Virus record (IMG/VR): IMGVR_UViG_2617270954_000006
Reading direction: 5' to 3' (one strand)
Origin: a virus
Lineage: Duplodnaviria > Heunggongvirae > Uroviricota > Caudoviricetes
Length of the DNA: 6,705 nt
The notes under the pieces are model-generated. The model ran no database searches, was not told the DNA's origin, and was given only the letters and a program-made list of their open reading frames with translations. The position numbers were made by a program, and so were the translations under genes. Below, piece after piece: positions 1-2,586 of the stretch (the first letter of the stretch is position 1; the number at the start of each line of letters is the position of its first letter).

Positions 1-1684
1 CCCTAATGAGGCCGGACAACCGCAGATGGAAGTGATGATGCGGGATCAACTGCAGAAAGCCTCTGCGGTGCTGGCGGTGATGGATTACACCCAGATGAAC
101 TCAAAAGCGGATGAAGACGTCCGTAAAGAGCTTAATGCCATTGCTGACGTATCAGCCGGCCGCCTGTTTGTGCTGGTCAATAAATTTGATGAGAAAGACC
201 GCAATGGCGATGGGGCAGATGCCGTACGCCAGAAAGTTCCGGCAATGCTGAACAGTGATGTGCTGCCCGCCTCCCGCGTTTATCCAGGCTCATCACGTCA
301 GGCATACCTGGCTAACCGTGCGCTTCATGAGTTACGAAAAAACGGTGAGCTTCCTGTTGATGAAGCCTGGGTCGATGATTTTGTCAGGGAAGCTTTCGGT
401 CGCATGAAAAAAGAATACGTCTGTAAAGACAGCGAACTGGCAACTGAAGGGGCGACAGACCTGTGGGAAGGCTCCCTGATCGACCAACTGATAACGGAAG
501 TCATACAGAGTTCACATTCCAGAGCCGCGGCACTGGCGGTTGATTCTGCTGCCGCAAAACTGATGCAGAATGCGGAAAATGTCAGTGAATATCTGTCATT
601 ACGCCATCAGGGGCTGCAGCAAAGCATTCAGTCACTGCAGGCGCATATCTCCAGCCTGCTGGCGGATATCCGGGAAATAGCAGACTGTCAGGAGCAGGTG
701 ACCGCTGATGTCAGAATGGCCATGGAGGACATCAATACCAAAACCGGGGAATTACTGACGGGGGTCTGCACCTCACTGGAAGAGGAGCTGAATGACTATT
801 TCAGAAACGGTAAACGCAAAGAACAGCAAATGCTGGAGGAAGAAGACGCAGAACAACGAAGGTCTCAGTCCGGATTATGGGGAAAGATTTCTCAATGGTC
901 CGGTATCAACAACCAGGGCTGGGAGGATTACAGGAAACGAGATTTTGACCCGGACAGCCCCGAAATAAAATTCAGTGATCGCAGGGAAGCTCTTGAACTG
1001 ATGACGCAAATCGAATCGACCGTGACCAGCCTGCACCGTGAGGCTGAAGCACAGTTCCGGCCTGAGCTGGAAAAAATCGTCAAAGGTATTGAAACTGGTT
1101 TTCGTGGTACGGCCCTGTATGCCGCAGAAAAGATTGCCGGACGTATCAATGCCCGCCTGGAGGATGAGGGCTTTACCGTAAAAATCACTTTCCCGGTAGT
1201 CAGCCAGTTACAGACCCGGCTCGCGATGAAAACCAACTTAAGCACTCTTCTGGAAGAACGACCAGAGAAGATCACACGCCATCGTCGGCAGAGTGGTCTC
1301 TGGGGAAAAGTTTGTGGGTGGTTGGGCACCAGTGACTGGGGCTGGGAAGAATATGTTGATATCGTGCATCGCAGCGTGATCAATATGAACACGGTCAGAG
1401 AGGAAGTGATGTCTCTGACCCGGGCATATTTCGGGGAACTGCAGACATCCATTGAGCAGAATATTAACCAGCCCGTCCGCCAGGAAATCGATGCCTTTTT
1501 CTGCGCATTCAGGGAGAAAGTTGAACAGCTACGTAACACGCTGATTCAGAGCTCTGAAGATCATAAACGCGATCAGCAGGCGCAGGAACGGCTTACCGGG
1601 CGTCTTCAGGCATTAAATGAAAGGGTTCCCGAGTTGATTACTGACAGTAAGGCGTTAAAGGAAGAACTGGAGACACTGCTGTGA
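1..1684 (+). CDS. Dynamin-like GTPase (bacterial dynamin-like protein, CrfC/LeoA-like), 5'-partial; the window shows the end of the G domain plus a long helical stalk
   Basis: The reading frame is open from base 2 to the TGA at 1682-1684, so the gene starts upstream of the window. A G4-type motif hhhhNKxD (FVLVNKFD, nt 179-190) sits near the visible N-terminus, implying G1-G3 lie upstream. It is followed by about 500 aa of charged, helix- and coiled-coil-rich sequence typical of dynamin stalk/neck regions. An internal duplicated Trp-rich motif is present. Codon usage and GC (about 52-55%) are coherent across the ORF. Confidence 0.7.
   Translation, partial: PNEAGQPQMEVMMRDQLQKASAVLAVMDYTQMNSKADEDVRKELNAIADVSAGRLFVLVNKFDEKDRNGDGADAVRQKVPAMLNSDVLPASRVYPGSSRQAYLANRALHELRKNGELPVDEAWVDDFVREAFGRMKKEYVCKDSELATEGATDLWEGSLIDQLITEVIQSSHSRAAALAVDSAAAKLMQNAENVSEYLSLRHQGLQQSIQSLQAHISSLLADIREIADCQEQVTADVRMAMEDINTKTGELLTGVCTSLEEELNDYFRNGKRKEQQMLEEEDAEQRRSQSGLWGKISQWSGINNQGWEDYRKRDFDPDSPEIKFSDRREALELMTQIESTVTSLHREAEAQFRPELEKIVKGIETGFRGTALYAAEKIAGRINARLEDEGFTVKITFPVVSQLQTRLAMKTNLSTLLEERPEKITRHRRQSGLWGKVCGWLGTSDWGWEEYVDIVHRSVINMNTVREEVMSLTRAYFGELQTSIEQNINQPVRQEIDAFFCAFREKVEQLRNTLIQSSEDHKRDQQAQERLTGRLQALNERVPELITDSKALKEELETLL
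857..931 (+). repeat. Intragenic protein-level repeat, copy 1 (RRSQSGLWGKISQWSGINNQGWEDY) within the dynamin-like ORF
   Basis: Direct translation of frame 2: R-R-S-Q-S-G-L-W-G-K-I-S-Q-W-S-G-I-N-N-Q-G-W-E-D-Y. It shares the pattern R-x-Q-S-G-L-W-G-K-[IV]-x-x-W-x-G-x(3-4)-G-W-E-[DE]-Y with the copy at 1283-1354. Confidence 0.6.
1283..1354 (+). repeat. Intragenic protein-level repeat, copy 2 (RRQSGLWGKVCGWLGTSDWGWEEY) within the dynamin-like ORF
   Basis: Same frame, about 425 nt downstream of copy 1. The nucleotide-level similarity is also visible (cagtccggattatggggaaag vs cagagtggtctctggggaaaag). Confidence 0.6.
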
Positions 1685-2586
1685 CTTCACCATTTATTCA
1701 ACAAATTGCTGATAACCGGGTATGTCAGGTACTCACCTGTTTTCCTGAAAAATTTGTGGTTGATTTCGCAAACGGTATTGATGTTGCACAGGAGCATATC
1801 CGCATGGCCGGAGAGCGCACGTTCTTCCGGCGTTTAAAAGAGGGGCTGACCGGCGAAGGTGCTGCACGGCAGAATGCCATCAATGCTGCGCTTGCACAGG
1901 GCGTTGAGTCATCCCTGCGCTGGCTGACGGAACTGACAACGTCGCTTGCCACCACAAACTACGCGATTACCCGGGTAAACGACAGGGTCAGTTCACTGGT
2001 CAGTGATACTGCCAGGCTGGCGCATTATTCGGCTGACACGCGGGAGCAGTTACTCACCCTGGCCGATCAGGTTCACCAGAAACTGAATCATCTTGAAGAG
2101 AGACTCCACCGTGTTGACCAGGTTCAGCGGGCACAGTTACATCTTGAGCAGATATTCTCATGGTGGAGCGCCGGGCGATATGCGTCATTTTCTCCTGCCG
2201 GACGCTGTTATGTGGCACTTGAAGAACTCCGTTGGGGCGCGTTTGGTGATGTGATACGTCAGGGCGAAACAGGCCAGGTTAACCAGTTACTGGATATTCT
2301 CAGACATAAAGCATTAACGCAGATGGCACAGGAGAGTGGCGGTAGCGCAACAGTGCGTCTGAACACACTGGACTGGCTTGGTGGTCAGAGCCGGGAGCAG
2401 GCAGATAACGAATGGCATGAAGCGATTAACTGGCTGGGGGACTGGTGCAGTGAAGAGCGGCATCCGGTGATCTGGTCAACCACGCAGGCTGCAGAATACT
2501 TACCGGTTCGCATGCCCCGTCTCTGCTCTGCAGAACGTCTCTCTGAAAGTATGGTCGATGAAATATTTCAGAAGGGGGCTGCATGA
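1681..2586 (+). CDS. Hypothetical helical/coiled-coil protein (301 aa), dynamin partner of unknown function
   Basis: Its GTG start at 1681 overlaps the upstream stop (GTGA), with a GGAG Shine-Dalgarno at 1669-1672, 8 nt upstream. The ORF is uninterrupted to the TGA at 2584-2586, which overlaps the next start (ATGA). It has a predicted helical, heptad-like central segment (…LVSDTARLAHYSADTREQLLTLADQVHQKLNHLEERLHRVDQVQRAQLHLEQ…) and a Trp-rich C-terminus. No catalytic or transmembrane motif was recognised. Confidence 0.75.
   Translation: MTSPFIQQIADNRVCQVLTCFPEKFVVDFANGIDVAQEHIRMAGERTFFRRLKEGLTGEGAARQNAINAALAQGVESSLRWLTELTTSLATTNYAITRVNDRVSSLVSDTARLAHYSADTREQLLTLADQVHQKLNHLEERLHRVDQVQRAQLHLEQIFSWWSAGRYASFSPAGRCYVALEELRWGAFGDVIRQGETGQVNQLLDILRHKALTQMAQESGGSATVRLNTLDWLGGQSREQADNEWHEAINWLGDWCSEERHPVIWSTTQAAEYLPVRMPRLCSAERLSESMVDEIFQKGAA

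Follow-up and report, generated by a model that had tools for sequence, protein, structure and literature searches.

The window analysed here, a 6,705-nt stretch of the IMG/VR virus record IMGVR_UViG_2617270954_000006 (Caudoviricetes), carries three overlapping genes on its plus strand. They encode a dynamin-like GTPase (ORF1, 3' part), a 301-aa protein of the YjcZ/RdcB family (ORF2) and a patatin-like phospholipase (ORF3). ORF2 is very probably the RdcB-family partner of the upstream GTPase. In the sampled genomes the three genes recur together as a triad, and the lipase is, with moderate confidence, the functional output of the module. Coordinates of the features are given in Table 1.

Family assignment of ORF2

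ORF2 matches the Pfam profile PF13990 (YjcZ) over its full length (positions 1-272 of 272), with 235.7 bits against a cut-off of 27 and an E-value of 7.8e-70. It aligns with RdcB/YjcZ of E. coli K-12 at 31% identity over 281 residues (E 2e-38). Like RdcB, it is a soluble protein of about 300 aa encoded 3' of an RdcA-type GTPase with a 4-nt overlap. These features place ORF2 in the YjcZ/RdcB family. At 50% identity this family forms 444 clusters among 1.84 billion representatives, and almost all of its members are about 300 aa long.

A sequence-only reading of the window had pointed to a likeness in size and organisation to the E. coli crfC(yjdA)-yjcZ gene pair, and had proposed an alignment with YjcZ. 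The likeness proves to be genuine homology: besides the match of ORF2 to YjcZ, ORF1 is 33% identical to K-12 RdcA/CrfC/YjdA (E 4e-122). The same reading had called ORF2 motif-less, which does not hold given the end-to-end profile match and family-invariant signatures such as EELRWGxFGD. Its description of the protein was otherwise accurate. The gene spans 1681-2586 and overlaps both neighbours, the AlphaFold2 model (mean pLDDT 81, pTM 0.55) has a helix at residues 59-163, and eight of the nine Trp residues lie in the C-terminal half. No transmembrane segment is found in ORF2 (Kyte-Doolittle maximum 0.9 in a 19-residue window). The C-terminal domain of the model (172-300) is small, with two short strands and a terminal helix. 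The ORF2 gene is under purifying selection, with a dN/dS of 0.13-0.15 against the UM146 and E. albertii alleles.

ORF2 is not an orthologue of RdcB proper. Its 31% identity compares with 42-59% for enterobacterial orthologues, it falls in a separate clade and its gene lies at an island locus instead of beside proP. Nearly every E. coli genome (5415 of 5426) has the core rdcB gene; therefore, ORF2 is an additional paralogue.

The two clades share the core W.AG...GRCY..EELRWG.FGD. Residues that are conserved and identical in both cluster at 161-195, together with R226, W232, P262, P279, R286, E294 and F296. R226, R280 and R286 are invariant or nearly so across both clades and appear to correspond to the beta-strand and C-terminal helix region through which RdcB binds RdcA. 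Fourteen of the 20 positions that are fixed within each clade but differ between clades fall in residues 18-100, in a comparison for which the RdcB clade sample is taxonomically narrow. The N-terminal segment PEKFVVDFANGIDV (residues 22-35) is partly substituted in true RdcB (HPKF.VDLV.G.DA) and is a candidate partner-specificity segment. From this pattern, the C-terminal part of ORF2 may be the common GTPase-binding part and the N-terminal part may be partner-specific.

Conservation of the three-gene unit

The genome scan used one genome per species and two peptide patterns; 80 of the 159 confirmed loci were kept and analysed by tblastn. All 41 loci with a query-like YjcZ gene (33-96% identity) have an ORF3 orthologue (31-92% identity) directly after it, starting -14 to +18 nt from the YjcZ stop. 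A patatin gene adjoins none of the 39 loci with an RdcB-like gene (42-59% identity to K-12 RdcB), five of which are uninformative because their contigs hold under 1 kb of sequence beyond the gene. These 39 loci all carry Enterobacteriaceae labels except for one Vagococcus-labelled contig, which is probably a contaminant.

Hosts of the triad include Pseudomonas, Pantoea, Erwinia, Budvicia, Psychrobacter, Allochromatium, Thiodictyon, Nitrosomonas, Gallionella, Sideroxydans and several Comamonadaceae. Remote metagenomic members of the family are likewise found in triads. A mobilisable Nostoc plasmid carries a triad with a 24%-identical YjcZ copy, and plasmids of Klebsiella, Enterobacter and E. 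coli carry triads with 63%-identical copies. When the flanking open reading frames of 48 loci were compared all-against-all, only the dynamin, YjcZ and patatin families were conserved. Candidate clusters for a fourth conserved gene, found in 9-25 loci, were rejected as antisense shadow ORFs of the three triad genes.

The gene junctions in the window suggest translational coupling. At the first junction (ctGTGA) the ORF2 GTG at 1681 runs into the ORF1 TGA at 1682-1684; at the second (gcATGA) the ORF3 ATG at 2583 runs into the ORF2 TGA at 2584-2586. Each overlap is 4 nt long. Purine-rich, Shine-Dalgarno-like runs precede both starts, with GGAG 7 nt 5' of the GTG and GGGGG 5' of the ATG. The GTG at 1681 is the sole canonical start 5' of the conserved residues 18-41. 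In 29 of 40 other loci the homologue also has a start at -4, and 27 of 41 YjcZ-patatin junctions overlap by 4 or 8 nt, although the script chose the candidate start closest to the upstream stop, which biases these counts towards overlap. K-12 rdcA-rdcB has the same 4-nt overlap; the next gene there is proP and there is no lipase. A GC-rich, terminator-like hairpin begins 17 nt past the ORF3 stop and likely marks the end of a three-gene operon.

The patatin linkage bears on the automatic name of ORF2. NCBI already lists it as 'diguanylate cyclase regulator RdcB family protein', activation of the cyclase DgcE is the only experimental function in the family, and GGDEF proteins are present in 2 of the 122 nearest neighbours of 36 triad loci. 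ORF1 and ORF2 could thus be a second regulator of DgcE or another MASE1 protein, providing an island-encoded c-di-GMP or biofilm input, with the lipase as a passenger. However, a linkage of 41/41 is not how a passenger behaves. ORF2 is an extra copy beside core rdcB, its clade is separate, and its identity to RdcB is well below the 55-59% among true orthologues. Its N-terminal third is the part most altered relative to RdcB, and the triads of Betaproteobacteria, Chromatiales and Nostoc have no conserved cyclase neighbour. A role as a second cyclase regulator is very improbable.

The sequence-only reading had proposed that ORF2 is an adaptor, an antitoxin-like inhibitor of the lipase or a second dynamin-associated subunit, the last of which the homology to RdcB and RdcA supports. 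As an antitoxin, ORF2 would hold the patatin lipase off, and its loss or degradation would free a membrane-destroying toxin. The gene is directly upstream of a potentially toxic enzyme with an overlapping stop and start, the locus is in islands rich in toxin-antitoxin genes, and patatin effectors as a rule stay inactive until a trigger arrives (CapV-type models match ORF3 weakly). Against this, the conserved unit always has three genes including a GTPase of about 800 aa, unlike a two-gene type II toxin-antitoxin pair, and 301 aa is large for an antitoxin. ORF2 has no match among the PADLOC toxin-antitoxin and defence models. RdcB, the sole characterised relative, is a positive accessory factor of its GTPase. 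The association of ORF2 with ORF3 is not exclusive, and the shared invariant residues of ORF2 map to the reported GTPase-binding region. The inhibitor role is therefore considered improbable.

A decayed locus also touches on this question. In E. coli PA11 (L094 4001-5136), an insertion sequence (IS) deletion removed the dynamin gene and nearly all of ORF2, and the patatin gene is intact. This retention speaks weakly against an essential antitoxin role, as the remnant may be unexpressed.

Other variants of the triad were also seen. A Methylomonas locus has an additional 99-aa ORF between the dynamin and YjcZ genes (L085:9617-9916), and a human-associated metagenome contig has the dynamin split into genes of 596 aa and 223 aa (L088:496-2954). 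Natural fusions were considered as a stand-in for a complex and rejected. P0004 joins the dynamin N-terminus to YjcZ and P0059 joins YjcZ to the patatin C-terminus; both are internal-deletion derivatives from decayed E. coli triads. A third, P0057 (YjcZ and patatin), looks like a frameshift or read-through artefact.

The GTPase and the lipase

The full-length GTPase has 798 aa, longer than the roughly 740 aa first estimated, and the window holds its last 560 codons. The P-loop (K81) and G2 (T102) are encoded 5' of the window start. The G1-G4 motifs, among them G1 (GTMKAGKST), G3 (DTPGPNE) and G4 (NKFD), are conserved in the patatin-linked GTPases, with 90% or more for the catalytic motifs. ORF1 matches the NCBIfam model NF007368 (CrfC) with an E-value of 1.1e-82, well under the equivalog cut-off, which together with the K-12 alignment identifies it as a paralogue of RdcA/CrfC/YjdA.

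The C-terminal domain of ORF1 contains a basic Trp-rich loop, RRQSGLWGKVCGWLGTSDWGWEEY, with the consensus RRRxxGxWGxxCxWFxTxDWGWExY across the patatin-linked GTPases. Its composition suggests a role in membrane insertion. ORF1 has two copies of this motif, at 854-928 (QSGLWGKISQWSG..QGWEDY) and at 1277-1357 (QSGLWGKVCGWLG..DWGWEEY). The second is kept in nearly all patatin-linked GTPases. The first lies within a variable Lys-rich linker, is found in E. coli and E. albertii only and looks like a recent partial internal duplication.

ORF3 matches PF01734 with an E-value of 3e-27, and its oxyanion loop, nucleophile elbow and catalytic Asp are intact. Across 42 patatin orthologues the motifs GGGA.GAY, GASIGALN (Ser42) and DGG.GGW (Asp223) are at least 90% conserved. 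The dN/dS of ORF3 is 0.27. Judged by their motifs, both the lipase and the GTPase look like active enzymes.

Distribution and origin

The window is E. coli DNA and is 100% identical to strain NCCP15648, among others. In NCCP15648 the copy is in a tellurite-resistance island at a tRNA-Ser gene, adjoining ghrA, and the three genes are annotated as 'dynamin family protein', 'diguanylate cyclase regulator RdcB family protein' and 'patatin-like phospholipase family protein'. Of 5426 complete E. coli genomes, 2422 (about 45%) carry the triad (window 1-3653) at 90-95% DNA identity, and a single genome may have it in up to five places. Carriers include O157:H7, IAI39 and the B2 strain UM146, in which the triad is 93.7% identical to the window at the DNA level. 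The exact allele of the window is rare, with 16 genomes at 99% or more. In E. coli the triad fills the cargo slot of CP4-like integrative islands and has DUF932, antirestriction, RadC/YeeS and CbeA/CbtA genes as neighbours.

Midpoint-rooted neighbour-joining (NJ) trees separate the patatin-linked and patatin-less YjcZ proteins cleanly. In a concatenated dynamin and YjcZ NJ tree rooted on Nostoc, the patatin-less RdcAB proteins are monophyletic and nested within the triad clade (100/100 bootstraps), with the Budvicia triad as their sister. The simplest reading of this topology is that the core enterobacterial RdcAB derived from a triad ancestor through loss of the lipase gene. RdcAB would also have been retargeted to DgcE.

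The distribution also bears on a housekeeping role, in which the dynamin and ORF2 as its assembly factor would tether or fuse damaged inner membrane and the lipase would trim lipids, with no signalling switch or conflict role. Membrane surveillance is a task of DynA and other bacterial dynamin-like proteins (cited in PMC12922286), RdcB promotes membrane clusters of RdcA (PMC13463826, 2026) and the conserved basic Trp-rich loop of ORF1 suggests membrane insertion. However, the triad is patchy and mobile, being limited to 45% of E. coli genomes, occupying up to five places per genome and residing on islands and conjugative plasmids, and its flanks are variable and often rich in defence genes. 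A remodelling or repair machine of this type is thus unlikely.

Proposed mechanism

In its nucleotide-free state, the dynamin-like GTPase RdcA switches on the diguanylate cyclase DgcE, a step that needs RdcB (PMC6510439). RdcB binds RdcA constitutively and is recruited to the membrane by it (PMC6510439, PMC13463826). It probably opens RdcA into an active conformation, and its contact with RdcA involves arginines of the C-terminal helix, the beta-sheet and a loop, though the authors still describe the role of RdcB as 'less clear' (PMC13463826).

The favoured explanation transfers this arrangement to the triad. By homology with RdcB, ORF2 would form a constitutive complex with the GTPase and would be needed for the GTPase to switch on a client enzyme. 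The client would be the translationally coupled ORF3 lipase rather than DgcE. By analogy with RdcA, the GTPase would be inactive in the cytosol while bound to GTP. When GTP falls, (p)ppGpp rises or some other trigger acts, the GTPase-ORF2 complex would move to the inner membrane, where it might dock through the conserved basic Trp-rich loop and would recruit or activate the lipase on its lipid substrate. Physical binding, activation as the direction of regulation, GTP sensing and the physiological role would all follow from this analogy. Taken as a whole, from ORF2 as an RdcB-type subunit to the lipase as output, this explanation is the one to which the evidence leans.

Several points weigh against it. 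The C-terminal half of the GTPase, which in RdcA binds DgcE, is poorly conserved between ORF1 and RdcA; therefore, the RdcA mechanism may not transfer to ORF1. Contacts among ORF1, ORF2 and ORF3 are proposed from homology and linkage, and operon linkage indicates a common function, not which protein regulates which. The authors who described homologous operons in E. coli MP1 propose the reverse control, with the RdcB-like protein and the lipase regulating the dynamin (PMC12922286). The pattern scan covered 80 of the 159 loci, so exceptions to the patatin rule may exist, and the phylogeny used NJ trees of sampled loci with a single outgroup. In PADLOC, none of the three triad proteins falls in a validated defence system; ORF2 has no match, and ORF1 and ORF3 match at the superfamily level only.

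Genomic neighbourhood

The 122 nearest neighbours include six WYL regulators (four of them also WCX), four JukA and two JukB proteins. SNF2/DrmD-like helicases, type I and IIG restriction-modification genes and PADLOC candidate systems are also among them. In 8 of 48 loci, belonging to different genera, the triad is preceded by a gene in its own orientation for one family of predicted transcription regulators. The upstream regulators checked are WYL-WCX proteins (BrxR/CapW-like), except that the Pectobacterium copy (L086) has HTH-type annotations only.

In Pantoea, Erwinia and two Pseudomonas loci, a JukA homologue starts 6-60 nt past the patatin stop, and a fifth copy (L026) lies further downstream. 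JukB accompanies JukA in Pantoea and Erwinia; none is present in the two Pseudomonas genomes. In total, JukA is associated with 6 of the 48 loci compared (5 of the 41 scan loci). This adjacency may be a functional link or only co-location in defence islands. Other triads have different surroundings. One Pseudomonas locus has an integrase and a DUF927 gene, the Allochromatium triad lies amid housekeeping genes beside Fic and Uma2, and the Pectobacterium triad is within a CbtA island. No homologue of ORF2 was found in 50,697 phage genomes.

The MP1 homologous operons are transcribed and strongly induced in Kapi1 lysogens, and their authors suggested phage defence (PMC12922286). This induction, the JukA/B, WYL and restriction-modification neighbours and the mobility of the triad hint at phage defence. 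An anti-phage or conflict-related role is put forward tentatively, as something short of an even chance. A stronger form would make the triad a widespread abortive-infection-type system in which an RdcB-like protein assembles a dynamin that senses GTP/(p)ppGpp or membrane damage and arms a phospholipase against the inner membrane of infected cells. It would be wired to JukA, as infection sensor, in some genomes, and RdcAB would be its domesticated, lipase-less descendant. This stronger form is considered rather doubtful.

Other features of the window

The G+C content falls from 52-56% to 36-44% across window positions ~3700-5700. This block has three small ORFs (3767/3782-4240, 4366-4905 and 5175-5588). 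The first and third have signal-peptide-like N-termini and the second has a GYF_2/DUF4339 domain and hydrophobic segments. Searches with PADLOC and NCBIfam profiles gave no family match for any of the three. The block appears to be cargo separate from the triad. Further downstream, the NCCP15648 record has a frameshifted DUF905 pseudogene over window 5685-5866, and over 5999-6705 a plus-strand DUF932 gene that continues beyond the window end. This DUF932 gene probably accounts for the 192-aa ORF at 6005-6583 on the minus strand as its antisense shadow.

In the E. coli island, a gene for a 290-aa YeeP-like 'GTPase family protein' (L001:13198-14070) is directly upstream of the dynamin gene. It is also present in the Pectobacterium island, has no conserved linkage to the triad elsewhere and gives weak PADLOC profile matches (LeoBC, E 2e-8; LeoA, E 2e-4). 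This GTPase is a backbone component of CP4-like islands.

Table 1. Features of the window and of compared loci. Positions are those of the window unless preceded by a locus number.
Feature	Position	Strand	Remarks
ORF1, dynamin-like GTPase, 3' part	2..1684	+	last 560 codons of a 798-aa protein
ORF1 G4 motif NKFD	179-190	+	conserved
ORF1 basic Trp-rich loop, C-terminal domain	1277..1357	+	conserved across patatin-linked GTPases
ORF2, YjcZ/RdcB family, 301 aa	1681..2586	+	GTG start; both ends overlap neighbouring genes
ORF2 N-terminal signature, residues 22-35	1744..1785	+	conserved in patatin-linked clade
ORF2 EELRWGAFGD, residues 181-190	2221..2250	+	family signature EELRWGxFGD, largely invariant in both clades
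ORF2 MPRLCSAER, residues 278-286	2512..2538	+	contains R280 and R286
ORF3, patatin-like phospholipase, 356 aa	2583..3653	+	PF01734
ORF3 oxyanion loop GGGAVG	2619-2636	+	intact
ORF3 nucleophile elbow GASIG, Ser42	2700-2714	+	intact
ORF3 catalytic Asp223 in DGG	3249-3266	+	intact
Terminator-like GC-rich hairpin, then T run	3670..3699	+	consensus match only
Upstream regulator family	L011:1561-2577, L012:373-1272, L015, L018, L026, L030, L086, L090:1812-2798	triad orientation	
JukA homologues	L004:9034-10793, L006:8974-10751, L016:8957-9724, L037:8993-9727, L026:11753-12520		downstream of patatin

Significance and comparison with known systems

RdcA-RdcB is currently presented as a unique bacterial dynamin that acts as a GTP-sensing trigger of c-di-GMP synthesis. 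In the sampled genomes, the commoner and older arrangement of the GTPase/YjcZ pair is an operon with a patatin lipase. This operon spans the Proteobacteria and at least one cyanobacterial plasmid, and the E. coli genomes that carry it include O157:H7 and ExPEC. An annotation of the gene existed before, and a 2026 paper had noted the E. coli operon. What is new here is the patatin rule, without exception in the sampled loci, and the wide range of phyla and replicon types in which the triad occurs. RdcAB as a probable lipase-less derivative and a residue-level hypothesis of partner specificity are also new. The name 'diguanylate cyclase regulator' probably misdescribes the island copies. If the GTPase-RdcB pair does switch on a lipase, this would be a new control of a membrane-degrading enzyme and would give a concrete idea of what RdcB-type proteins do. 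The interest would rise considerably if the triad were a GTPase-gated lipase in phage defence.

The triad resembles several known systems in part. Eleos ('Dynamins', LeoA/LeoBC) also has dynamin-superfamily GTPases on mobile islands. ORF1 gives a weak partial match to LeoBC (E 8.9e-6) and none to LeoA, and ORF2 matches neither; unlike the triad, the PADLOC models of Eleos have no YjcZ or patatin component. CapV is the cGAMP-activated lipase of CBASS, whereas the triad lacks both a cyclase and a nucleotide-sensing domain. The CBASS lipase model, which has a cut-off of 200 bits, gives ORF3 a score of 22 bits (E 7.6e-5), through the N-terminal motif only, and no CD-NTase cyclase is found in the window or annotated flanks. 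The N-terminal catalytic region of ORF3 also resembles VipD (E 2e-6) and PlpD (E 7e-13). The likeness to VipD, PlpD and CapV spans about 60 N-terminal residues and offers a mechanistic analogy only. In the pair of Legionella VipD and Rab5 (PDB 4kyi), the GTPase reportedly activates the patatin lipase allosterically. That GTPase is Ras-like, while ORF1 is dynamin-like. In Juk systems, JukA is a sensor with variable effectors, and the Juk preprint describes JukA proteins fused with patatin or Ras-like GTPase domains; PADLOC finds no JukA or JukB in the window.

The literature found on dynamin and patatin together has no mechanistic study, the genes being mentioned in passing in E. coli genomics and transcriptomics. 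By their description, the E. coli MP1 operons are of the same type as the triad: they carry the three annotations, lie on an island and are about 30% identical to core RdcAB. The MP1 paper (PMC12922286) does not cover cross-phylum conservation, phylogeny or mechanism. The closest characterised relative remains RdcB. Unlike RdcB, ORF2 is mobile and accessory instead of core, and its N-terminal third carries clade-specific substitutions. In the sampled loci, a patatin gene is never seen with the RdcAB operon and is always present with that of ORF2. Whereas the client of RdcB is DgcE, that of ORF2 is presumably the lipase.

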